A stretch of DNA of 64,000 nt. Source: a virus. Taxonomy: Duplodnaviria > Caudoviricetes. The stretch is taken from the IMG/VR virus record IMGVR_UViG_3300029288_000060, positions 128,001 to 192,000 of that record, one strand, 5' to 3'. The notes under the pieces were generated by a model that saw nothing but the letters and a program-made list of their open reading frames with translations, was not told where the DNA came from and made no database searches. Below, piece after piece: positions 2,157-57,065 of this stretch. The translations under genes and the position numbers were made by a program. Numbering within the stretch: position 1 is the stretch's first letter; every line of letters starts with the position of its first letter.

Positions 2157-5100
2157 TTAATTCCCCTTTTCTAACTCCATGTCTACACCTGTAACCAACA
2201 AAGAGTTTCTTAACAAATTAACTGTTTCTGGAATAGTTGAAATATCTGTATCATCTTTTAAATAATTTGAATCAATAATATTTTTTATGTATTGATTTTT
2301 TAAATCAATACAATCAGATTTGGTTGTTAAGAATTCAGTTAAATTATCCAACGCTCCATGTCCTATTAGAGCGCTTTGTTCCATTTCTCCTAAACGCTGA
2401 CCACCATGATTTTTTCTTCCACCAGGTGGCTGTAATGTCTTTCTATTATACAATGAAATAGACCTAAAAGTCATTTTATTTGCAGCAATATGTATCATTC
2501 TAAAGAAATACATAAAACCAACACATATAGGATTTAATATAAAATCATCTGAAGCATAATCAAAGAGTTTATATTCATGTTTAGTATTAGTATATTTCAT
2601 TGCTTTTAAAACCATATCATAATCAGAAGATTCAAATGGTGGCGCAAGTAAGGTAATGTTATTTAAAAAATCTTCATTTATTTTTTCATTTTTTAATTGC
2701 GCTTTAAATTGTTTATAATACCAATTATTTTTCGTATTATCAATTAATTTAATATAGTACAATAAATTCTTTTTAATTTTAGAAATTCTATCAGATTCAG
2801 ATTCATCGGGATTTAATGGGTCATTAAGCATACATATTAATTGAGTTTTTAAATCATTTAAAGACATCGCAAGGTTTGCTTCAAAAACTTGACCTACATT
2901 CATTCTTGAGATAATTCCCAAAGGATTAATACAAATGTCTACATGTCTACCATCTTCCATTTTTGGCATTTCTTCATGGGGTAAAATTTTTGATATTACA
3001 CCTTTATTTCCATGACGGTTGCCAATTTTATCACCGACCTCAATATTTTTTAAATACATAGCTGACATTTCAACATGTATCCCATTAATTTCTTCACCTT
3101 TGATTTTATACTTTCCTGAATGAGAAAACTTATCTAAATTATTATCTCTAATAAATTGTAAAGCTCTAGATTTTGGTAGTCTTGTATAAATTATATTTTG
3201 AAGATTTTTTTCTTCATCTATTTGACGTTGTTGAGTTTTTTCAACCCATTCTGAATACTGTTTAATTTCTTCATTATATTTGTTTACATATATATCTACA
3301 TTCATGACAAATAACGTATTTTTTGTTAATAATGGAATTTCTTCTTTAAAAATTGAATTATATTCTAATGGATTTCCAGACATTTCTTTTAAAATTGCAT
3401 AAGGTTGTCCACTATTAATTATGTCATATTTCTTTTTAAATCTTTTTTCATCTTGTATAGTGTAAGGTCTTGGTAAGGGTTTATATCTATTTTTTTCTAG
3501 TGATAATAAGATTTTTGATTCTGGAATATTAAATGATAAATCTTTTACATGAACAGATGTAAAAATATTTTCTTTAATTAGTCTATCTGAAATAATGATT
3601 CCATCTTCATAGTTATAACCATCCTTTGGCATAATTGCAGTAAGTAAATTCTTACCAAAATTTATTTCACTATTTTTACAATAATTACTCTCAGCAATTA
3701 TATCACCAGCTTTAACTTTATCGCCTTCATGAACATACACTTCCATTAAATCAACATTTTCTACATATATCTTTCTTGCACCTACATTAATTAAATCAAA
3801 ATCTCCATCATCATATACAATCATAACAAAATCATAATCAACATAGATAACTTCACCATCTTTTTTAGCTCTTTTAATAAATTGAGTATAATCTGTATAT
3901 AATCCTTCACAACCAGTTTTAATCATAGGTTGATCAAAATTAAATAACATTATTGCCTGTCTCATTTGAGAAGATGCCATTTGTAATCTTGTCTGGTCGT
4001 CATTCTCTAAAAATGGCACCATTGTAACAGGAATTGAAATTGGTTGTTCTTTTATTGTCTTTTCAGTAAACTTTAAATTATTATCTAAATTAACATTAGG
4101 TAAAAGACTTTGTAATATACCACAATTTTCTCTATCTGGAGTATCAACAGGACAAATTCTTCCAAACATTGATGGTTGAATATCTCTTAGATAATAAGGA
4201 ACATTTTCTCTATTAAATCCTCCTGGTCCAACTAAACTAGTTCTAGATAACATAGTAAGTTCTTCAATTGGATTAATTGCAAAATCAAACTGAATAATAT
4301 TAGACACATTACAATCAGATAAAATTTGAGAAGAATTAATTCCAAATTTTGGATTTTTTGTTGTTCTATTTGCCATACATAAATCAAAAACTGCTTTTGA
4401 AACTCTGGATAATATTATATATTCAAAACACCTTATTCTTTTATTTATAAAATCTGTATCATCAATATTATTAATTTTTATTACATTGATTAGGTCCCCT
4501 AAAACTGTTCCGGTTGTAAAGAATCTTGCTGATATTAAATCAGTTTTAAGGATTAAATCTAACCCATAAATTAAATCCTCGCCTTTAATCTTATAATCAT
4601 ACTTAGAATAATATTTTCCTGCTTCTTTAATCAGGTCTTCTTTAGTATATTTATAAACTTCGTAACCAAGATAAAACTTCTTTAAATCAAATAAAAGTTT
4701 ATCATAAATATCGTAAGTAATTAATTGAATACTTTCATCATCATTAATTTTATCTTGGTCAAACTCAAACATTTTTTCAATTTCTTCACGGGTATAATAT
4801 GAAAATATTACTAAAGATAAGGGCAATTTTTTTCCAAAAATAGAAATGTGTACATAAGGAAATTCTTTCTCTTCTAAAATCATTAAAGATGTAACATTAG
4901 TTCTCATCTTTATTGTTTTTCCTCTAGTAACAAAAGGAATATCAAATAATTGAAATAAAGGTATTTTCCTTTTACCTCCAATAACTAAATAATTATCATC
5001 CACTAATTTTGGAATAAACATAGATAAATCAATTTCTGATTCGCCTTTTTTTAGTTTAATTACTAAATTTTTCTTTAACGTTCTATATAATTCACCGGAC

Positions 5101-5267
5101 GAAAACTTGGATTCTCTAATTCCAAAATCTGTAATTATAAATCCAAGTTCCTCGGCCGGTCTAAGAATTTCTCTAATTATTGATTCTAGATTTTCATAAT
5201 CTTGTTTTCTCAATGTAAATATATTTCTTTCTTGATTAACTTCATAACCAGGATTTATAAATTTCAA
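2157..5267 (-). CDS. rpoB: Multisubunit RNA polymerase beta-like subunit (set 1)
   Basis: GRICPVDTPD, PFLENDD..R.QM.S.QMRQA, GYNYEDG, GDKIGNRHGNKGVIS, NPLGIISRMNVGQ, GGQRLGEME. Confidence 0.93.
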   Translation of the reverse strand: MKFINPGYEVNQERNIFTLRKQDYENLESIIREILRPAEELGFIITDFGIRESKFSSGELYRTLKKNLVIKLKKGESEIDLSMFIPKLVDDNYLVIGGKRKIPLFQLFDIPFVTRGKTIKMRTNVTSLMILEEKEFPYVHISIFGKKLPLSLVIFSYYTREEIEKMFEFDQDKINDDESIQLITYDIYDKLLFDLKKFYLGYEVYKYTKEDLIKEAGKYYSKYDYKIKGEDLIYGLDLILKTDLISARFFTTGTVLGDLINVIKINNIDDTDFINKRIRCFEYIILSRVSKAVFDLCMANRTTKNPKFGINSSQILSDCNVSNIIQFDFAINPIEELTMLSRTSLVGPGGFNRENVPYYLRDIQPSMFGRICPVDTPDRENCGILQSLLPNVNLDNNLKFTEKTIKEQPISIPVTMVPFLENDDQTRLQMASSQMRQAIMLFNFDQPMIKTGCEGLYTDYTQFIKRAKKDGEVIYVDYDFVMIVYDDGDFDLINVGARKIYVENVDLMEVYVHEGDKVKAGDIIAESNYCKNSEINFGKNLLTAIMPKDGYNYEDGIIISDRLIKENIFTSVHVKDLSFNIPESKILLSLEKNRYKPLPRPYTIQDEKRFKKKYDIINSGQPYAILKEMSGNPLEYNSIFKEEIPLLTKNTLFVMNVDIYVNKYNEEIKQYSEWVEKTQQRQIDEEKNLQNIIYTRLPKSRALQFIRDNNLDKFSHSGKYKIKGEEINGIHVEMSAMYLKNIEVGDKIGNRHGNKGVISKILPHEEMPKMEDGRHVDICINPLGIISRMNVGQVFEANLAMSLNDLKTQLICMLNDPLNPDESESDRISKIKKNLLYYIKLIDNTKNNWYYKQFKAQLKNEKINEDFLNNITLLAPPFESSDYDMVLKAMKYTNTKHEYKLFDYASDDFILNPICVGFMYFFRMIHIAANKMTFRSISLYNRKTLQPPGGRKNHGGQRLGEMEQSALIGHGALDNLTEFLTTKSDCIDLKNQYIKNIIDSNYLKDDTDISTIPETVNLLRNSLLVTGVDMELEKGN

Positions 5268-5333: not shown

Positions 5334-8096
5334 TTATAAAGATTCTCCACAAATAATTTTATCAAAAATACCTTTATATTTTCCAGACTTTTGAATACCT
5401 TTAATGATTTGTCTTTTAGGGTTAGAAAATCCTAAACCTAAAATCCAGCTCGCTTTTTCAGGAACAGATTGAATGCTGTAATAAACAGGAACTATTTTAT
5501 TCCTATCTTTTACCAATCTCCATAAATTTTCTTGACCATTATCAATTGCCCACATCATCTGAGATACTATACATTCAAAATGAACATGATGTATATTTCT
5601 GCTCCTGTTATATATTTCATATGAATTATCAACTAAGTCTTTATAATTTTTATCTTTTGTTTGATGAAATAGTCTTGATGCTAAAGTTAAATCCCCAACA
5701 ATATCTTTTTGTTTAGATTCTTTATTTTCCTCTTCTTCATCTTTTCCTAATTTTGCAACCCCCGAGTTGTGGAACGTACGAAGTATAAGCTGAGTATTTG
5801 TTTCTCCCAATGACTGCGCCGCGATAATTCCAATAAAATTACTATGAATATTTTTCCATAAATCTCCGTAACATTTATGACATATTTCTTGACTATTGCA
5901 AAAAATTGGACTTCTTATTTTAATAGTTTTGTTTATTAACTCTATTCTGTTTTTTTCTGTAATTTTTTCAAGCTGGTTTTTTTCATTTAGAAAATATCTA
6001 TCTAATAACATTTTTGATTTTTTATCATCGTTTACATAAACATCAAGAAAATCTTGTGTACCACAATCATCAATATCTTTACTTAGTTCTAAATTTGAGC
6101 CTGTAAATAATAATTTTCTCGATAAGTACCCGGAAGTACCAGTATTTAAGGCAACATCTAAAAGACCTTTTCTACAACCATATGTTGAATTGAAAAATTC
6201 TTCTTGTGTTAATCCCTCCAATAAACTATGTTTAATTGGTTTTTCTTTAATCATTCCATTAAAATCTGAAACAAAACCTCTAGAAAATACAATCTGGGAT
6301 GCTTGTTCCCAACTTCCCCTAGCACCTGATTCGATTAAATAAGAATAATTAAAATTATCTTTTAGGAAATTTATTGTTTCTGGGGAAGTAAGTTTTCTAA
6401 TTTTTTCCAAAATTGTTCCGTTTTCTTCATATATTTTATCTCTTAGTTTACCCGAATTTTTTATTTCAAAAGCTTTTAGGGATAATGTAGGACCAAAAAT
6501 AGTTGAATATTTAAATCCAATTTCTTTAATCTTATCTAAAGTATTTGCAACAATATTTTCCGGGTATATTTCTTTAATATTATTCAATATTTTTAAAAGT
6601 TCTTTTTTTCCAACAGGATAATTTATTAACTCATAATCTTCAGGAAAACAATCATTTAAAATTTTAAGAGATTCAGGAACTTTTTTTCCTTTGTAGTCAA
6701 TTATATTTTGCAATTTTGGGAATTGATTCGTACTTAATGTATATATACCTAAAACTATATCCTGACTTGGTAGTGTTGATAATTCATTATTGGCAGCATT
6801 CGTAAAATTTTTTGTAATAATAACTTTTTCCAATAATTCATCTTTTGTTTTTTTAGAAATAGGTACATATACTGCCATTTGATCACCATCAAAATCCGCG
6901 TTAAATCCTGAACATACCAATGGATGTAGTTTAATTACATTATCTTTAGAAATTTTAATCTTAAATGCCACCATACTTAATCTATGTAATGTTGGTTGTC
7001 TATTTAAGATACATAATTCATTTTTAGATAATTCTTCACAAATATTGTATAATGAAAAGTTAGAAAACGTAACACATTGATCTATATAATCTATTGCTTG
7101 ATTTAATAATTTAAATTTACTAAGTTCTATTAATTTTTTAGCAACTGGTAATTTAAATAACTCTAAAAAACCAACATATGGTAAAGAACATTCATCAATA
7201 TTTAAAGCAGGATCTGGTATAATAACAGCTCTGCCAGAAAAATCAATTCTTTTTCCTAGTATATTACCTCTTATTAATCCTTCTTTTTTAGATAATTTTT
7301 CAATAATATGCTCATACAATTCAGTTGCGTCTTTTTGTAATTGTTTAAAATAAGAATAAAAGAGAGTTTTATCCCTAGTAATATCAATAATAGTATCTTT
7401 CATAGATTCTTTTTTGGTAAGGATTTGCATATAGAATCTATTTATTTTATCCACAATTTGATTATTTCTTTCAACTCCTTTTGCTGCAGGCCTTAAATCT
7501 GGTGGTAAAACTAAGATATTTTGAGTAAATAATTTATCAAGATTATCTAATATATTTTTCCATTTACTATTAGGATCATCCTCAACATACGCCATAGCCA
7601 TATTACTAATTAACTCATATATTGCATCCAATTTTTCCCATCTTAAAACACCTGGCGGAACTTTATCTTCTTCAGTTACAAAATAAAAGTCATCTTTTGT
7701 GTATAACACACTTTTTTCATTTTTCATTAACTTATTCAAATACGCTTTTAATTTATTTCCTGCTATATCAATAACTAAATCATACATAATTGGATTAACT
7801 ATTTGAACTGGTAATACTATTTTAGCAAATCTTTTTCTTCTTACATCGCTATTTACAATATCTACACCACAAATTTTACATGTACCACCTGACCTGGAAA
7901 CACCATGATATACATCACATTGACAAGTATAATTCTTTACAGGCCCAAAAATTTGCTCAGAAAATAACCCTTCTGAATGAAATTTTCTTTTGTCAATAAT
8001 CTTAGAAGATGTTATTTCTTTTAAATCTTCACAAAATGCTCCTAAATCAAGAAGTTTTGGCATCTTTTTTATCGACCTCGCTTTCACTTTTTTCAC
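5334..8096 (-). CDS. rpoC: Multisubunit RNA polymerase beta-prime-like subunit (set 1); true start may be MPKLL near 8063
   Basis: GLFSEQIFGP, CxC...CxxC zinc finger, VLPPDLRP, LGKRIDFSGRAVI, NRQPTLH, catalytic NADFDGDQ, TSGYLSRKL, TQLILRTFH. Confidence 0.95.
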   Translation of the reverse strand: MKKVKARSIKKMPKLLDLGAFCEDLKEITSSKIIDKRKFHSEGLFSEQIFGPVKNYTCQCDVYHGVSRSGGTCKICGVDIVNSDVRRKRFAKIVLPVQIVNPIMYDLVIDIAGNKLKAYLNKLMKNEKSVLYTKDDFYFVTEEDKVPPGVLRWEKLDAIYELISNMAMAYVEDDPNSKWKNILDNLDKLFTQNILVLPPDLRPAAKGVERNNQIVDKINRFYMQILTKKESMKDTIIDITRDKTLFYSYFKQLQKDATELYEHIIEKLSKKEGLIRGNILGKRIDFSGRAVIIPDPALNIDECSLPYVGFLELFKLPVAKKLIELSKFKLLNQAIDYIDQCVTFSNFSLYNICEELSKNELCILNRQPTLHRLSMVAFKIKISKDNVIKLHPLVCSGFNADFDGDQMAVYVPISKKTKDELLEKVIITKNFTNAANNELSTLPSQDIVLGIYTLSTNQFPKLQNIIDYKGKKVPESLKILNDCFPEDYELINYPVGKKELLKILNNIKEIYPENIVANTLDKIKEIGFKYSTIFGPTLSLKAFEIKNSGKLRDKIYEENGTILEKIRKLTSPETINFLKDNFNYSYLIESGARGSWEQASQIVFSRGFVSDFNGMIKEKPIKHSLLEGLTQEEFFNSTYGCRKGLLDVALNTGTSGYLSRKLLFTGSNLELSKDIDDCGTQDFLDVYVNDDKKSKMLLDRYFLNEKNQLEKITEKNRIELINKTIKIRSPIFCNSQEICHKCYGDLWKNIHSNFIGIIAAQSLGETNTQLILRTFHNSGVAKLGKDEEEENKESKQKDIVGDLTLASRLFHQTKDKNYKDLVDNSYEIYNRSRNIHHVHFECIVSQMMWAIDNGQENLWRLVKDRNKIVPVYYSIQSVPEKASWILGLGFSNPKRQIIKGIQKSGKYKGIFDKIICGESL

Positions 8097-35074: not shown

Positions 35075-35105
35075 TTTTTACTTTGCTATCCTTTCAAATT
35101 TTTTA

Positions 35106-35180
35106 TCGGGATGGTTGGATTTGAACCAACAACTTCATGATCCCAGGTCATGATCTCTATCCAAATTGAGTTACACCCCG
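35106..35180 (-). tRNA. tRNA-Pro(UGG), atypical
   Basis: Acceptor CGGGGTG/CATCCCG + A73, anticodon arm CATGA-CCTGGGA-TCATG, T arm GTTGG-TTCAAAT-CCAAC; no encoded CCA. Confidence 0.85.
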
Positions 35181-35187
35181 AATTTGT

Positions 35188-40611: not shown

Positions 40612-43600
40612 TTATGTTCTCTCCAATATCAATGAAATAAAATATGAATTTAATAAATCCTTTGCAGGTGATATTTTTGCATCTCTATAATTTGCAGATC
40701 CTGTTTGAACAATATCCGAAATAATTTCATTTTTAGTTGTTAGATCATCACTTAAAGGCCCCATTAGTTCTGATAATAAAGTTGGACAATTGTATGAAAT
40801 TAAAGAATATGTGTCTGCTTCACCTAACCTCTGTCCACCTTCTCTTCTTTTTCCTGATGTAGGTTGTAATGTTTTTCCAGTAACTGGGCCTGTACTTCTT
40901 CCATGCAATTTCATATCCGCCATATGCTCTAATTTACTAAAATACATATATCCTACTGGTACTTCACTTTTTGTTTTTGTTCTATATTGTGGTAAAAATA
41001 ACTCATACCCAGGTTTTAAACCCAAAAAAGACAAAGCTCTTTTAATTTGGTCTTGTTTTGGAGCTTGAAATGGTGGAATTATAATTGGAACAAAAGCTGT
41101 ATTTTTTATCTGGTTTATTAAATTTAAAAACTCTTTATCGCTTAAAACAGATAAATTTGCTATCAATCTGCTTGTAAATTGTTTATTAGGGGAACTATCT
41201 AAAATTGAATAAACAGATTTCATTAAAGTTAAAATTTTATCTTTTCTATTTAGTTGACTAATTCTTATTGCTAAATCTTTTGCAATTAACCCACAATACA
41301 ATTCATATAATTGTCCTATATTACTTCTTCCAATAATACCAATAGGATTAACAATTATATCCATTGTTTCAGACCACGGGGCTGGAGTTCTTGGCATATT
41401 TTCATCTTTTTCTACTAAACATATAATTCCTTTTGCTCCAAATCTGTTACAAAGTTTATCACCAAGATTAATTTTTAATTCTTGCTCAATTTTAAATCTT
41501 ATTAAGATACCATGTATTGTATTACCTTTAACTGAAAATTTTTCTGTTAGAGTGGTTTGATACTTTTTCCTTGTCCTATTAATTAATTCTTGTAGTATTG
41601 GAAATTTATTCTCATCAAGATTTGAAAAAACATCAATGTCAACAATTTTCCCTCCAGGACTTTTCTTAATAAATTGTTGACCTATAACTTCTTCTCCCTC
41701 TTCTTCAGAAAATCCGAGCAATTGTTCAATTTCACCCATCGTTTTCTTTAGAATTGGTTTACCTTTTTCAACATATTCACCAATTTTTGCGATCTCTAAA
41801 ACTCTATCCTTTTCAAAGATTAAAACTTCATCAATTATACCATGAATAGATGTTAATTTATCTTGGTTAATTAATCTTTCATTAATAACAATACCATCTT
41901 CAAAGTTATACCCATCGTAGGGCATTACCGCAGTTAATAAAGTTCTTCCTAAAGAAATGGTTCCATTTGAAATACAACTACCTTCAGCAATAATTTGATT
42001 TGTATGAACATTTTGATTTACTTTAACAATTGGGTTAAAAATGCTAAGAGTATTTTTACCGGTTCCTGACTTTAAGTGTATGGGGCTAATAGGAATTTCT
42101 AAAGTTTTTTTATCTTTACATAAAATAGTAATTGAATCGTTTGTAATATTTATAATTTTGCCATCACAAGGAGCTTTTTTAATAAAATTTTCTGATAAAC
42201 CATTTGTAAACAAAGACTCGTAACCAGATCTTACTACAGGTGGTTCTGGATTTTTTAATGGAATCATCTGTTTAGCTTGGTTTGTAGCCATTATAATTCT
42301 AGCGCCATCATTATTTTCAATAAATGGAATCATACTTGAGGCAACTGATAATATACCAGACTTTTCATTATCAGAAAAAGCTTTTTTAGAAAACAAACCT
42401 CTGGCAGATGTTATAGAAGCACCAATAGATAATTGTTGAGAGATACCAATCATTTCACCTTCTGGAGTATCTAATGGGTCAATATTTCCATAATAGGAGG
42501 GATGAATATTTCTCGCTTCATTTTGTATAGATCTTTTATCGGGAATACCACCAATATTTTTTCCGATGGGTGAAATTCTAGTCATGACTGCCATTTCTTC
42601 GATTGGATTGGCGAATTCCATATTTGCAACTATTTCGGATCTATTAAATTCACTAAGTAGTTTAGTTTGGTTTATTTCAAACTTTGCATTTTTATTACCT
42701 GATATAATTTGTTGTTTATAAATTGTATAGGCAGCTAAAATTTGTTTTTGAACTAGATGAACTAAAACTTCAGATCCTCTAATTCTTTGGTTTAGAATAT
42801 CATTACGATCTTCAACATAACCAATAATTATTTTATATGACATATAATACATAATATCTTTTAACGTTGAAGGTAATTGTTGATTAATTAAAACTTGTTT
42901 TGCAACAGGATCAACAATATTTTCTAAATTTGATAAAATTAAAAATGTTGTGTTAACTTTACCTGTTAACTTAAAAATAACTTCATTAAAATATTCTACA
43001 CTAGCAAATTCTTTTTTAATATCTAATGTATCAATTTTAGCAACAGAAAAGGATGTTATTAATTCTTTCTTTAATTCACTATCTACATTATCAAAATAAA
43101 TATAATTTATATTATCAATTTTAACTACATATTGTTGAGTCTTTTTAGGTTTATCTTGACTAATTTTATATGTTATTCCATACTGAGCTAAAATATGTTC
43201 AAACCCAAAACTAAAAAATAATAGAATTGATAATGGTAACCATGTATTTGCGATAAATATTTCTAAATATTGTAAATTTCTAGTTCTTTTACTTCTTATT
43301 CTAAAAACAGAATACGAGCTTTCAAACCTAGATTCAAACTTTTTAGGAAAAGTTATTGGACATAAAACAATTTGGTTAACTAAACATTTTCTTTGACCAT
43401 TAACTCTAAACGTTCCCGTCTTTTCATCAATTCTTGGAATCTCGATTTGTATATAATGTACTTTTCCATCTTTATCTGTTACAGTTGTTTTTATTAAATT
43501 AATATCTGATTTTTCAATTTCTCCAGCTTTTTGCCTTTTTCCAACTATTTCAATAGGACCTATTTTTAATGGTAATTCTTTAGTCTCTAGTACTTTAAAA

Positions 43601-44732
43601 GAATTTTCTAAATCTTTTTTCAAATTTACTTCAAAATCTATTAATCTTTTTTGAAATAAATGTTGCGGAGACTTATCAGAAACTACTTTTGGAACATTAT
43701 AGGATTTTACAATTGCATCATTTGAAGTATTTATAGGTTTTTGCTGAGTTAATATCTGATCAGAATATTGACTATCAATAATTTTTAGTGAATTACCAAC
43801 TTTTTTTTTGATATGGAATTTGTAATTTTTTTAGCTTTGTTTACATCTCCACTAACTTTACTTAAAATAGAGGCAACCCCAACTTTTTCAAGCCCACTTG
43901 CAGATACTTGTTTTGAGGCTATTTTTTCTTTGGCGACAGGATCTTTTTGTAAATATGATTGAACAGCATCTCTTACTTGTTCTTTATTTTCTGGTTTGAT
44001 TTTAGCATGTATTGTATTCATCACTTGGTCAACAATCTGATCTGTTTCGTCATCCTCTACTTCATCACTTGTATCTAACGAAGTTTCAATTTTACCTGAT
44101 TTAATTGTTTTTAAGATTGTTACAATTCTTTCAAACTTAAAATTTTTATTCTTAACTAATAATCTATATCTAACACCAGACGAAGTGATTAAACATAATA
44201 TTAGATGATCAAATTCAAAAGTTCCTTCTTTAAGTTGTTGAACAATAGGAAAGAATTTTCTATCAACAAATTTATTTAAGTTGTCTTTCGTTAAATCTAT
44301 AGTATACATCAAAACTTTTTCAAAATTATTAAAATCTGAATAAGATTGATTTACAATATTTTTTATAAACAAACTTAATCTTTGACGATAATTGGAAGGA
44401 TTAAAAGTTGAGTCAATAGCATTTAAATAAACAGTTAAATCATAAAATACATTTTTAGATGTAGGAACTTTCATAATTGAAGAATATGAATATATTCCAT
44501 ATTTTTTAAATGCTTTGATTAAATTTTGAGTTATTCTAGTTCTAGGAATTCTAGTCACTGGAATTATATTAATTTTTATATCTACAAGTTTTAAATTTAA
44601 TTTTGGATAGTCTTCTAAAAAACTAGAATTTTCAGAAAAATATGTAACTATGAAATTCTCACCTGGTTTATTAGGAAACCTTATTCCATCAACAACATGT
44701 GTATATTGTCTTAGAGACTTAAATTGAATCAT
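40612..44732 (-). CDS. rpoB: RNA polymerase beta-like subunit (set 2), encoded as two ORFs (43785-44732 and 40612-43623) joined by a -1 shift at an A9G run
   Basis: DTPEG, PFIENNDGAR, GYNFEDG, GDKLCNRFGAKG, GGQRLGE; the beta frame stays open 59 codons upstream of its annotated TTG, back to the A9 run. Confidence 0.85.
43800..43809 (-). other. Slippery A9G run (TCA AAA AAA AAG)
   Basis: Nine T at 43801-43809 on +; contains A_AAA_AAG in phase; lies in the short overlap of the two reading frames. Confidence 0.65.
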
Positions 44733-44747
44733 TTTTTAGACTCCTTT

Positions 44748-47700
44748 TTAATCTTCTATTTCTTTTTTCTCAACTAAAGTACCAGTTAACAATCTTTCTA
44801 AGACTGAAGGTGGTAATTCAGTTGTAGTAATCAATCCAGTATTTAGAGCATTATTTACATTCTCAAAAGCTAATCCTTGTAATAATCCGCTATTAAATAT
44901 ATTTTTCTTTATATTCATTAAAACTGGTTTTAATGGATCTTTTCCAACTCTTGCTGGAATAACAGGATTATTACTATCTCTTAAAACTTGACTAATTAAT
45001 ACTTCCATATGCACTAAATCAATACTAGAAATATCACTATATATTTTATAAAATTTTAAAAATAAATGGTTAATATCTTTAAATCTTTCTTTACCAGACA
45101 TTAATCGTTCAACATATAAAACTATTTCTTTTAAATCCTGCTTTTGTAAAGGAACTTCTAACATTTCATAATCTTTATTAAACAATAAATTAATAACATC
45201 TTTAGTCTTATTTATAATTTTAGAATATTTAATAATAACAGGGTAATCTAATATTAAATCAAATGATAAATCTGGAAAGTTTACCTTTGAAATTAAACCA
45301 TTTAAATAGATAGTGTTTTCTTCTTCATTAATAATAAAATTATCACCAATTTCATAACTTTCTAAATCTATTATCATAGAACATAAATCTGTACAATATA
45401 AATTATTTTCGATTTGGTTTAATTTTGTTTTAAGTTGGTTAATATTTAATAAAGGATCATTTTCAAAAATATCTTTTAGAATATCTCTTGTAATAACTTT
45501 AATTGCGGTTGAATGAAATGTACGCATTATCAACTGAGTATTTCGTTCTGCAATATTCTGCGCAGCAATGATTCCAATGTATGGACTTTTATGTACTTGT
45601 AAAAGTTTACCATAACAAGTATGACAAATTTTTAATGATTTACAAAAAATTGGACTTCTTAAATGAATTAAATCACCTGATTTAAAATTAGATGCTTTAA
45701 ATTCTTCTAACTTACCCCTTCTTATTATAAATCTTCCATTAAGTCTGCTGATAATATCTTCATTAAGTTTTATATCCAATGTTAAATCAGTTCCACAATC
45801 TTTTAATGTCCAATCCAATTCAACAGAATTTAGCAAATATGCTAATTTTCTTGCAGTATATCCAGTATCTGCAGTATTAATAACTCTATCAATTATTCCT
45901 GCCCTACTACCACCTGCAGCATTAAAGTATTCTGTCGGAGTTAAACCATCAGATAAAGAACCTTTAATTGGTGGCAAAATTTTACCAGTTGGATCTGCCA
46001 TAATACCCTTTGCAACTAAAATTTGTATTGGTTGATCCCACCCTTTTGTAGAACCCGACTCAACTAAACTATATAACCCAGTATCTTTTAAATGGTTAAT
46101 CATTATTGCTCTCATTTTACTAATTATTTCAACTGCTTCTTCAGTTGTCGCTTTATCTAAATTCTTTTTAAGTTCATATATTTCTGGTGGTATTGTAATT
46201 TCATCTAAATTTAATGATGGTGCTAATAATGTCGAAAATTTAAAACCAATATTTTTTAAACTATTTGCCACTTCTCTGCCTTTTTCATCACCATATTTAT
46301 TAACAACTTCAAAGATTAATTTATTTACAACTTTTTTAGTTACTAAATCGTTTATAAATCTAAAATCTTTTGGAAAGCAATTATTTAAAATTGCTTTTCC
46401 CATTGTTGTATTTTCATTTTTATAAATTACTGGAATATAAGGGTTTGTTGCATTATCTAAATCATCTTGTGATACTTTTATTGGTGATTTAAATTCCTTT
46501 TTGCTGTCTTTTGTTAATAAATATAAACCAACGCACATTTCCTTACTTAATTCAAAAGTGATACTTGTAAACGAATTAGATGACCTTGCTAACATCATTC
46601 TTTTTTTTGCTTCTTCTTGAGATTCAATTGTTAATGGATGAAAAATCGCCATTTGGTCACCATCAAAATCTGCATTAAAACCGCCAACAACAAGTGATGA
46701 AATTTGAACAGAATTACCTTCAACTATAACCGGGTAAAAAGCTCTAACAGATTCCGCATGTAAAACAGGATCTCTTTTTGCTAAAACTACTCTATCTCTT
46801 GATGCTAAAACTGTGGCTTCAAAAAAGATATTATATAATTTATCTGGAACAGTATCATTATTCTTTAAACTTCTTAAAATAATTGAAATACTATTTGTTG
46901 ACAAATCCAAATTTGTAAAATCTTTAATTAAATTCTCAAGTTCTATTTTATTTATCTTGCCAGAATATAATAGAATATGTATAATAAAAGGTTCAAATAA
47001 ACTTAAAGCTAATCTAAATGGAATCCCAATCTGGTCGGCTTTTAATTTGGGATTACCTATAATTACAGCTCTGCCAGAAAAATCTGTTCTTTTACCTAAT
47101 AATTGAGATCTAATTAAACCAAACTTTTTTCCTATTTTTGTTCTTATATAATCATCTAAATCATTAACTGATTTTTGTAATGACCAATTCATTAAATCGA
47201 ACATTGTACCTTCTGTTCCAAATGATTTAATAGAAATGGCTTTTCTTAGTATAGTCAAATATAAATCATTAATTTTATCTTGACTATATCTTCCAGTTTC
47301 ATCTTTATAAATTGGTCTTTGTTCTGGAGGTATTATCGGTACATATTTTATAAATAATGTTTCATTTTGATATGATTCTTGTAGAACTTTTATAAATTTA
47401 TCTCTATCTTCTGATTCACCTCTTATAGATAATTTTGGGTATAATTTTATAAATTCACTTATACCAGTTACTCCACTATCTTCTGATAACAATAATTCAT
47501 TACTATCCAATCTAAAAAAATTTTCTGTAGAAAACATTTTTTCTAACTTTCTGTCTAATCTTAAAAAAATTTTAAATGCAGTTGGATGAATAACTTGCGT
47601 ATTTAAATTTATATAAGAAAAAGTTTTCTTTCTTGCAAGAGAATTTTGGACTCCAAATATTCTCTCAGAAAAGATTCCATCCGGATGAAACTCTTCTGTA

Positions 47701-47777
47701 CGAGTATGGATTAAAGTACTTGTAACTGGTTTTAAACTTTTTACAAAATCATCCAGATTTAAAAATTTTAATGGCAT
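44748..47777 (-). CDS. rpoC: RNA polymerase beta-prime-like subunit (set 2)
   Basis: GIFSERIFG, LLGKRTDFSGRAVI, KRDPVLH, catalytic NADFDGDQ, TADTGYTARKL, TQLIMRTFH; no N-terminal Cys4 finger. Confidence 0.94.
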   Translation of the reverse strand: MPLKFLNLDDFVKSLKPVTSTLIHTRTEEFHPDGIFSERIFGVQNSLARKKTFSYINLNTQVIHPTAFKIFLRLDRKLEKMFSTENFFRLDSNELLLSEDSGVTGISEFIKLYPKLSIRGESEDRDKFIKVLQESYQNETLFIKYVPIIPPEQRPIYKDETGRYSQDKINDLYLTILRKAISIKSFGTEGTMFDLMNWSLQKSVNDLDDYIRTKIGKKFGLIRSQLLGKRTDFSGRAVIIGNPKLKADQIGIPFRLALSLFEPFIIHILLYSGKINKIELENLIKDFTNLDLSTNSISIILRSLKNNDTVPDKLYNIFFEATVLASRDRVVLAKRDPVLHAESVRAFYPVIVEGNSVQISSLVVGGFNADFDGDQMAIFHPLTIESQEEAKKRMMLARSSNSFTSITFELSKEMCVGLYLLTKDSKKEFKSPIKVSQDDLDNATNPYIPVIYKNENTTMGKAILNNCFPKDFRFINDLVTKKVVNKLIFEVVNKYGDEKGREVANSLKNIGFKFSTLLAPSLNLDEITIPPEIYELKKNLDKATTEEAVEIISKMRAIMINHLKDTGLYSLVESGSTKGWDQPIQILVAKGIMADPTGKILPPIKGSLSDGLTPTEYFNAAGGSRAGIIDRVINTADTGYTARKLAYLLNSVELDWTLKDCGTDLTLDIKLNEDIISRLNGRFIIRRGKLEEFKASNFKSGDLIHLRSPIFCKSLKICHTCYGKLLQVHKSPYIGIIAAQNIAERNTQLIMRTFHSTAIKVITRDILKDIFENDPLLNINQLKTKLNQIENNLYCTDLCSMIIDLESYEIGDNFIINEEENTIYLNGLISKVNFPDLSFDLILDYPVIIKYSKIINKTKDVINLLFNKDYEMLEVPLQKQDLKEIVLYVERLMSGKERFKDINHLFLKFYKIYSDISSIDLVHMEVLISQVLRDSNNPVIPARVGKDPLKPVLMNIKKNIFNSGLLQGLAFENVNNALNTGLITTTELPPSVLERLLTGTLVEKKEIED

Positions 47778-56277: not shown

Positions 56278-57065
56278 TTATACTAGTGCAGCCATTGCTT
56301 CTGGTAAACTCTTTCCTGTTGCATTTGCAAGTCTTTGTCCAAAACGTAACTTTAAAGCATGTAAACTAGATGGATTTAATTTACCTGCAGCAGACAACGA
56401 ATTTCTTTGGTTTTTGAACATACTTATTATAGGTTTTACAAAAGGACCTGTTATACCTTCATCAACAATTTCTTCGTCATCTACTTTTTTTTTATTTCTT
56501 CATCAACATCATTTTCAAGAATATTCATTGCTGCTTCTACAAGATTATCCCTTAAAATTTTATAGGCGTCTTCAATGATTTTTCCATTCCAAGTATTTAG
56601 TTTATTAATTTTCTTTGATTCAGTAATAGCCCGACCAATTAAAAGATTATCTATAGCTAATGAAAATGCTTTTGTTCGAATTTTTTCCTGGACAATCTTT
56701 TCAATATCAATCTTGTTATTTTTTATCTTAGAAATAGATTCACGTAATTCAGTTTTGACACTTTTTCTTCCTTGTTTTGAGGTTACCAACTTTTTACAAT
56801 TTTCTCTTGCAATAATAGCACTTTCCCTTGCCATTTTTCTTAAACCACTAGCATCTACCTTTTCAGTCAGCGTAGATGGATTATGTTTTACTAATTTATA
56901 CATTTCAATAACAAGAGACATTAAAGCACCTTTTATTGAAAAATACTCCTCTACAAAAACAGGGCAACAAACGTTTACCTTAGATACAGGTTTACCAAAT
57001 AAAACATAATCTAATGAATAAAAATTTTCAAGCACTCTGATCTTTGATTCTTTTTTCAATTTCAT
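56278..57065 (-). CDS. Hypothetical protein (194 aa) with a 68-aa -1 frame extension after an A9G run
   Basis: Ends ATA AAA AAA AAG TAG; the -1 frame continues VDDEEIVDEGITGPFVKP...LPEAMAALV to TAA at 56278-56280. Confidence 0.65.
56484..56493 (-). other. Slippery A9G run (ATA AAA AAA AAG TAG)
   Basis: Nine T at 56485-56493 on +, same codon phase as the site at 43800. Confidence 0.65.

Follow-up and report, generated by a model that had tools for sequence, protein, structure and literature searches.

A phage RNA polymerase beta gene in two reading frames, probably joined by slippage at a nine-adenine tract

The locus described here raises a simple question: is the beta gene of a phage multisubunit RNA polymerase (RNAP) really divided in two, or is it one gene that is read in two frames? 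The window, meaning the whole stretch of 64,000 nucleotides that was analysed, corresponds to bases 128001-192000 of a 268,812-bp IMG/VR virus record (IMGVR_UViG_3300029288_000060), with a GC content of 27.8% and a completeness estimated by CheckV at 74%. Nearly all long ORFs of the window lie on the minus strand, and among them are two beta-prime/beta pairs of multisubunit RNAP, called set 1 and set 2 (Table 1). The question concerns the beta gene of set 2.

Table 1. Positions of the polymerase genes and of the elements at the set-2 beta junction, in window coordinates.
Feature	Position	Strand	Remarks
Set-1 RNAP pair	5334..8096 and 2157..5267		
Set-2 RNAP pair	beta-prime 44748..47777, beta 40612..44732	minus	
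Set-2 RNAP beta-prime, 1009 aa	44748..47777	minus	Pfam Rpb1_1, _2, _3, _5
Shine-Dalgarno AAGGAG of ORF1	44741..44746	minus	8 nt 5' of the ATG at 44732
ORF1 (P0001), 315 aa	44732..43785	minus	set-2 beta N-terminal domain plus four out-of-frame residues, LVIH
ORF1 stop codon TAA	43787..43785	minus	
A9 run (T9 on the plus strand)	43801..43809	minus	proposed slippage site; exactly nine
A_AAA_AAG heptamer	43800..43806	minus	phase right for -1 ribosomal frameshifting; alternative or additional mechanism
Startless segment, 59 codons of the -1 frame (VGNSL...DFEVN)	43624..43800	minus	no ATG/GTG/TTG, no SD-like core
RNAP beta body as ORF-called, 1003 aa from TTG	40612..43623	minus	Pfam and PHROG matches

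The set-2 beta gene and its junction

The stop codon of the set-2 beta-prime gene and the ATG of ORF1 are 15 nt apart. At its 3' end ORF1 reads TCA AAA AAA AAG TTG GTA ATT CAC TAA, and the A9 run begins with the third base of the TCA codon. A TAA at 43833..43831 closes the -1 frame, which is then open for seven codons before the run and for 1062 codons after it, to a stop at 40614..40612 on the minus strand. If one A were added, 311 codons of the first frame and 1062 of the second would give a predicted product of 1373 aa. Its junction would read ...ITNSISKKK-VGNSLK..., and the junction peptide would contain SISKKKVGNSLK. Re-reading of the sequence thus agrees with the preliminary description, which had reported a 315-aa ORF ending at an A9G site, a -1 frame closed at 43831-43833 and then open with 59 extra codons, and a protein of about 1373 aa upon addition of one A; the computed product is colinear with the 1368-aa ORF of a relative.

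The junction stands out from its genomic background. Across the whole 268.8-kb genome there are 150 same-strand junctions of ORFs of at least 80 codons. This one has a startless gap of 161 nt, by far the longest between long ORFs, and is the sole junction of the 150 with a 9-nt homopolymer. For both reasons it is not a chance juxtaposition. The genome holds six homopolymer runs of nine and none longer; at its approximately 55 runs of eight and 315 runs of seven, no further broken gene is found. Judged from the DNA and its translations, the set-2 beta gene is one gene in two frames, joined at the A9 tract.

The larger part of this gene is recognizable as a polymerase subunit. The beta body matches PHROG RNAP beta families and the Pfam families Rpb2_3 (PF04565, 9.2e-10) and Rpb2_6 (PF00562, 7.2e-47), while its match to Rpb2_7 (PF04560, 1.3e-3) falls under the curated cut-off. 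By these three families, the fork, hybrid-binding and clamp-anchor domains of RpoB/Rpb2 are present.

The N-terminal part forms a domain of its own. An AlphaFold2 model of ORF1 (pLDDT 91.3, from a 41-sequence alignment) shows an alpha/beta domain at residues 1-210 and a helical domain at 227-309, with a disordered acidic linker between them at 214-226. The A9 run encodes part of a variable Lys-rich linker that follows residue 309 and connects the N-domain with the beta body. ORF1 has no match in Pfam or PHROGs, and its model aligns to PDB structures with TM below 0.3 (Foldseek). With VIA-align, the best matches are P-loop-like alpha/beta folds (zeta toxin, SRP GTPases) at Z 7.3, a score within the background range of the tool; no Walker motif is evident, and none of the solved structures is a convincing relative. 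In BFVD the model matches large jumbo-phage proteins, including a 921-aa protein of Bacillus phage PBS1 and one of 1393 aa, as well as a protein from a Myoviridae contig named RNAP subunit alpha. The beta profiles of PHROG 3148 bear a comparable N-terminal extension, and the set-1 beta (1036 aa) is without one. The N-domain is thus a phage-specific module of this beta lineage.

A different kind of interruption is seen in the neighbouring gene of the closest IMG/VR relative (L001, IMGVR_UViG_3300039154_000181). There, the set-2 beta-prime is broken after about residue 774 by an insert of approximately 985 nt (L001:4282-5265), which encodes a Cys-rich ORF of 333 aa with an HNH-like HPIDH...N motif. 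The flanks of 779 aa and 230 aa jointly match the unbroken 1009-aa beta-prime of the window. The insert is likely a homing-endonuclease intron or insertion.

Recurrence of the run and the break in related phages

Relatives of the gene exist in two states, fused and split. The same closest relative, at 68% identity, has a single beta ORF of 1368 aa (P0003). ORF1 aligns to residues 1-309 of P0003, and the -1 frame carries on from the next residue without a gap. The frame switch relative to P0003 falls exactly at S-K-K-K (S-K-K-K, then V/P-G/E-N-S/A-L-K-I-I-D...). An exhaustive HMMER search with ORF1 returns 83 homologues. Many are fused full-length betas of 1343-1502 aa, and further ones are short, stand-alone ORFs (about 310 aa) with an identical end point. 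A word-indexed search followed by clustering at 90% adds eleven stand-alone clusters of 311-324 aa (P0087-P0096, P0004) from Logan, ENA, NCBI and JGI, nine of which end a few residues past K-K-K and two (P0093, P0096) past K-K-N. Five split clusters are known by protein alone; P0089, P0090, P0092 and P0094 end after KKK, and P0096 after KKN. The metagenome scan for relatives used a 5-sequence alignment.

Wherever the DNA of a split gene was read, the site is the same. All nine such lineages, on more than 20 contigs from Logan, ENA, NCBI and JGI and at 37-72% amino acid identity, carry C-A9-(G/C) and need the same -1 shift. They are the window itself (TCA9GTTGGT), L070/L071 (two SRA runs), L058 (the one contig read of four that carry its ORF, P0088), L033/L034, L067/L068, L003/L036, L069, L059-L062 (GCA9C, from four different samples) and L004/L005 (GCA9C, 37% identity, two to three NCBI assemblies). 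No A8 or A10 allele occurs at the site in any contig read. The run is also found in frame in some fused genes, namely in L001/L032, where it reads TCA AAA AAA AAG CCT (P0003, in 13 contigs), and in L030, where it reads AAT AAA AAA AAA GTT. Fused and split clusters are never more than 78% identical, so the split species are consistently split.

The history of the two states can be followed in a 53-row maximum-likelihood tree built from the N-domain. A clade with 100/99 support contains 20 rows: 13 split, two fused with A9 and five fused without a long run. Counted by clusters, this close clade has 12 fused and 13 split members. Split members occupy both its deepest and its shallowest branches. 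A further split lineage, L004, stands apart from this clade: its sister is the fused L023, and it lies amid approximately 100 distant fused clusters. By our own reading of the tree, the state has changed at least five times.

The preliminary description had proposed recoding at the A9G site, and the recurrence of run and break in nine lineages, with purifying selection on the startless segment (see below), upholds the proposal. It had also named as contrary evidence close relatives with a continuous ORF and no conserved A run. Such relatives do exist (L006, L008, L035, L039 and L040), while about half of the close clade keeps both the run and the break. Since these five fused lineages do without a slippery run, a free N-domain is not universally required. 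By all indications, the A9 run and the break together are an evolutionarily maintained recoding site.

Isolated phages provide little material for comparison. DNA and protein searches of an isolate-phage collection with the junction and ORF1 gave no match. The beta body has only distant matches there, in Yersinia phages YerA41 and phiR1-37 and Staphylococcus phage S6, at 22-30% identity. When IMG/VR was scanned for the pattern of the site with A8-A11, only chance matches in AT-rich giant-virus MAGs turned up. In one sample, the contig of the homologue P0010 (313 aa) stops at the Lys run and then continues into adaptor-like sequence (...IPKKIGRASCRERV); in that sample the assembly broke at the homopolymer.

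Slippage, frameshifting and the remaining alternatives

Evidence that the two frames make a single protein is provided by the codons just after the run. In the window, the -1 frame continues as VGNSLKIIDSQYSDQ...DFEVN, and its first ATG, GTG or TTG is the TTG at 43623. This codon encodes a Leu within the motif SPxHLFQKRxxDFExNLKKD, which is conserved across all relatives, and is therefore not a credible start. The earlier remark that the TTG lacks a clear ribosome binding site holds, as no GGAG, GAGG or AGGA core is present anywhere in 43600-43840. For the genome as a whole, 73% of ORFs of at least 150 aa have an SD-like core at -20..-4, compared with 7% of random positions. Across six split lineages, 59-252 codons of the -1 frame pass after the run before a canonical start appears.

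The startless codons are nevertheless those of a working protein. The -1 frame is open all through in DNA of 26-28% GC, and the segment shares 59-67% protein identity with its counterparts in four more split members of the close clade. Pairwise comparison of the first 58 codons after the run between split lineages gives dN values of 0.07-0.49 and dS values of 0.8-2.2. Three pairs are saturated, and those with a finite dS have dN/dS ratios of 0.07-0.33. Purifying selection, in combination with the lack of a start and of a Shine-Dalgarno sequence, argues that these codons are translated through the junction. They are reachable only from ORF1, and recoding at the run would therefore be required in these phages. 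On the evidence of selection and gene structure, then, the startless codons are translated via recoding from ORF1. The same selection rules out pseudogene decay. An alternative genetic code was ruled out as well, because the two parts differ in frame and not in the reading of a stop.

The favoured model for this recoding is transcriptional slippage. Under standard decoding, translation would yield a 315-aa N-domain protein that stops four codons past the run. In a fraction of expression events, a shift at the run would bring the -1 frame into use and give the full 1373-aa beta. For this to happen, the transcribing multisubunit RNAP would re-align the nascent transcript on a T9 template that matches the RNA:DNA hybrid in length, and insert one A. 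The resulting A10 mRNAs would then be translated straight into the frame of the beta body. Ribosomal -1 slippage on A_AAA_AAG may add to the output. Most of the product would be the 315-aa protein of the zero frame, with full-length beta a fraction thereof. Overall, it is probable that one gene in two frames is recoded at the A9 tract, mostly by transcriptional slippage, and supplies both an N-domain protein and a 1373-aa beta.

The main rival is programmed -1 ribosomal frameshifting of the dnaX type, in which tRNA-Lys in the P and A sites slips on an unedited A9 mRNA. A ribosomal shift and the insertion of one A predict an identical 1373-aa product, which in either case is exactly colinear with the fused homologues. 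The heptamer A_AAA_AAG is present in the correct phase in seven of the nine DNA-read lineages (the window, L003, L033/L034, L058, L067, L069 and L070), and it is the most shift-prone heptamer in E. coli. The other two, L004/L005 and L059-L062, carry A9C and thus only the weak heptamer A_AAA_AAC, and AAC is a poor A-site shift codon in bacteria. Nor is there a sign of a stimulator. For six lineages, RNAalifold predicts 0 pairs in the roughly 90 nt downstream and 80 nt upstream of the run, and neither a conserved downstream stem-loop nor an upstream SD-like element is found. Unstimulated frameshifting alone would give a low yield of an essential polymerase subunit.

The length of the run also bears on the mechanism. 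It is always nine, which fits the 9-10 bp hybrid, and every lineage keeps three A's 5' of the heptamer that frameshifting does not need. Bacterial RNAP is known to slip efficiently at nine A/T, with an RNA:DNA hybrid of 9-10 bp (PMC5009743). Two further points favour slippage: another A9G run lies at 56485-56493 in an identical codon phase, and the phage encodes no tRNA-Lys (ARAGORN), so that the idea of a phage tRNA-Lys promoting ribosomal frameshifting was dropped. Together these arguments make transcriptional insertion of one A the likelier route, with moderate confidence, and frameshifting as the main mechanism quite unlikely. The preliminary description had offered both mechanisms. Its heptamer is borne out and lies in the correct phase, and the evidence leans to slippage over a dnaX-type shift. 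The shift itself would occur at the RNA level.

A second rival is an error of sequencing or assembly, with a true A10 in the DNA and an intact gene. Homopolymers are classic sites of indel errors, and the species of the window is seen in one contig only. The preliminary description regarded this as the main alternative, and the recurrence among relatives contradicts it: A9 and the break are shared by more than 20 contigs of nine divergent lineages, from independent samples, assemblers and repositories. Nowhere else in the genome is a gene's frame broken at a homopolymer. The in-frame A9 of the fused relatives is just as consistent, as in the 13 contigs with P0003. A systematic miscall of length cannot explain both sets, since A9 occurs in frame as well as out of frame; it would merely swap which set is broken. 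An error is thus very improbable.

A third rival, equally improbable, is a true split, in which the N-domain and the beta body are made as distinct subunits, the second being initiated at a non-canonical codon or by reinitiation once ORF1 has terminated. In every split contig, gene callers do mark the beta ORF downstream as a gene of its own, and jumbo-phage RNAP subunits are often divided into separate genes. Against this, the codons between the run and the called starts have no start codon or SD-like core and are under purifying selection. The called starts fall within conserved motifs, the TTG of the window being the Leu of NLKKD. Moreover, the break always lies at the A9 run, which an ordinary gene split does not predict. 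Within the limits of such comparisons, an independent second gene and an assembly error can both be taken as excluded.

Least probable of all is phase variation at the DNA level, with the tract flipping between A9 (off) and A10 (on) and the contigs recording the off allele: the state is evolutionarily labile, as the changes in the tree indicate, but no contig has an A10 or A8 allele, no fused cluster comes closer to a split one than the identity given above, all four samples of one species (L059-L062) have A9, and the DNA-read fused relatives of the close clade differ by substitutions near the run (AAG CCT in L001) and not by its length.

Other sites in the genome have similar features. The run at 56485-56493 belongs to a 194-aa ORF (56481..57065, minus) that ends ATA AAA AAA AAG TAG, with the -1 frame open for 71 codons. 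A relative at 79% identity (G001/L063) keeps TCA-A9-G-TAG and a -1 frame open for about 80 codons; the sequence of the extension is poorly conserved. The zero-frame stop at this second site is a TAG. ARAGORN finds a tRNA with a CTA anticodon, of the amber suppressor type, at genome 263759-263829 (plus strand, outside the window), which hints that TAG read-through is possible in this phage. The other tRNAs found are Gln(CTG), Leu(TAA) and Pro(TGG), the last at window 35105-35181.

Outside the window, two further A9 runs lie in phase in ORFs of the plus strand, at genome 19585-19593 and 18620-18628: one encodes Y-K-K-K-Y inside an ORF of about 391 codons, and one encodes ...EDKKK right before a TAA. 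Truncated or extended variants of these proteins would be expected as well if slippage at A9 is efficient. A further pair of ORFs, of 652 and 723 codons from stop to stop, is found at genome 86817-90924 (plus strand, outside the window). Their frames overlap by 17 nt, the first canonical start comes 70 nt past the upstream stop, and there is no long homopolymer. This could be another split or recoded gene.

Known systems and the meaning of the break

An example of slippage at a run of the same length can be found in dnaX of Thermus thermophilus, where a run of nine A's gives a yield of about 50% (Larsen et al. 2000, reviewed in PMC5009743). Both cases have exactly nine A's, need no RNA stimulator and affect a gene of the nucleic-acid polymerase machinery. 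In both, a multisubunit RNAP would add the A's (for the phage, this follows from the model above), and the two products share an N-terminus, with one ending soon after the run. They differ in the direction of the switch. The zero frame of Thermus dnaX encodes the long product, and the short one arises by slippage, whereas in the split beta lineages the short product comes from the zero frame and the long, presumably essential one would depend on slippage. The fused relatives L001 and L030 have the Thermus-like arrangement with the long form in the zero frame.

Another example is tssM, which is interrupted at an A11 run and restored by transcriptional slippage, resulting in two length variants (Gueguen et al. 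2014, PMC4256274). As in tssM of Citrobacter rodentium and Yersinia pseudotuberculosis, a stop lies just past the poly-A run, slippage would restore the full length in addition to the short form, and the device is conserved beyond one species. However, tssM has A11 and encodes a membrane protein of a bacterial T6SS, while the beta gene has A9 and encodes the catalytic subunit of a phage RNAP. Both variants of TssM have been shown to be required; the short form of beta is dispensable at least in the fused relatives without a run.

Frame-broken genes are also known from Shigella flexneri, where the two ORFs of mxiE are fused by slippage, and from Buchnera and Blochmannia, where poly(A) tracts rescue interrupted genes (PMC5009743). 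Like these, the beta gene is broken in an AT-rich context and would yield one protein through the infidelity of RNAP at a homopolymer. Tolerated decay is the usual reading of the endosymbiont cases, whereas the break in beta is kept across lineages with dS above 0.8 and with purifying selection downstream.

E. coli dnaX shares with the beta gene the heptamer A_AAA_AAG, its phase and a short product that ends soon after. It differs in having an upstream SD-like element and a downstream hairpin; in the beta genes, two lineages have AAC, and the run is three A's longer. The features expected of a -1 ribosomal site are thus found in part, with the heptamer in phase present and a conserved stem-loop, pseudoknot or SD-like stimulator absent. 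Those of programmed slippage that can be read from sequence are found: A9 at the junction, a one-A join that matches the unbroken homologue, and conservation of the run, the break and the selection downstream. The break is counted in 13 split clusters of the close clade (five protein-only) and in the separate L004 lineage.

In jumbo phages of the phiKZ and AR9 type, the split pieces of beta and beta-prime are separate genes with their own starts. The phage of the window resembles them in being a jumbo phage with two multisubunit RNAPs and a beta in two ORFs. It differs in that its second beta piece has no start or ribosome binding site, and in that the frame changes at a homopolymer within a continuous coding sequence. 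Full-text literature searches returned no paper that describes slippage or frameshifting in a multisubunit RNAP gene of a phage. The sole candidate for a precedent of recoding in a jumbo-phage RNAP, the PaBG paper, concerns dnaX only and was set aside.

The finding has a direct consequence for annotation. In 14 of the 14 split lineages found, gene callers give a hypothetical protein of 313 aa and an N-terminally truncated beta. As far as sequence comparison can tell, the correct product is a beta of about 1370 aa made via recoding. What would be new is a conserved and phylogenetically replicated case of homopolymer-dependent recoding in the catalytic subunit of a viral multisubunit RNAP.

The tract could also act as a self-referential control. 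In this proposal, which is tentative and rather doubtful, the rate at which the transcribing phage polymerase slips would govern how much full-length beta is made, and with it the amount of one of the two RNA polymerases of the phage, and the free N-domain would be a second functional product. Efficient slippage on T9 by the unsplit RNAPs of jumbo phages would lead to repeated flips of the frame (at least five changes in 20 taxa), and the device would be reused at 56485-56493. If this were true, it would imply a phage-wide regime of A9 recoding tied to the properties of a non-canonical RNAP.

Alternatively, the split may be near-neutral and tolerated, and not an adaptive device. Repeated flips of state would fit this reading, made possible by efficient slippage. 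An adaptive reading, if true, would mean a set ratio of products or self-limitation of the polymerase. The clade itself supplies natural controls, with A9 in frame, A9 out of frame and no run at all, which make slippage by jumbo-phage RNAP testable. These controls bear on whether such breaks are adaptive, fixing product ratios as in dnaX and tssM, or are tolerated as near-neutral.
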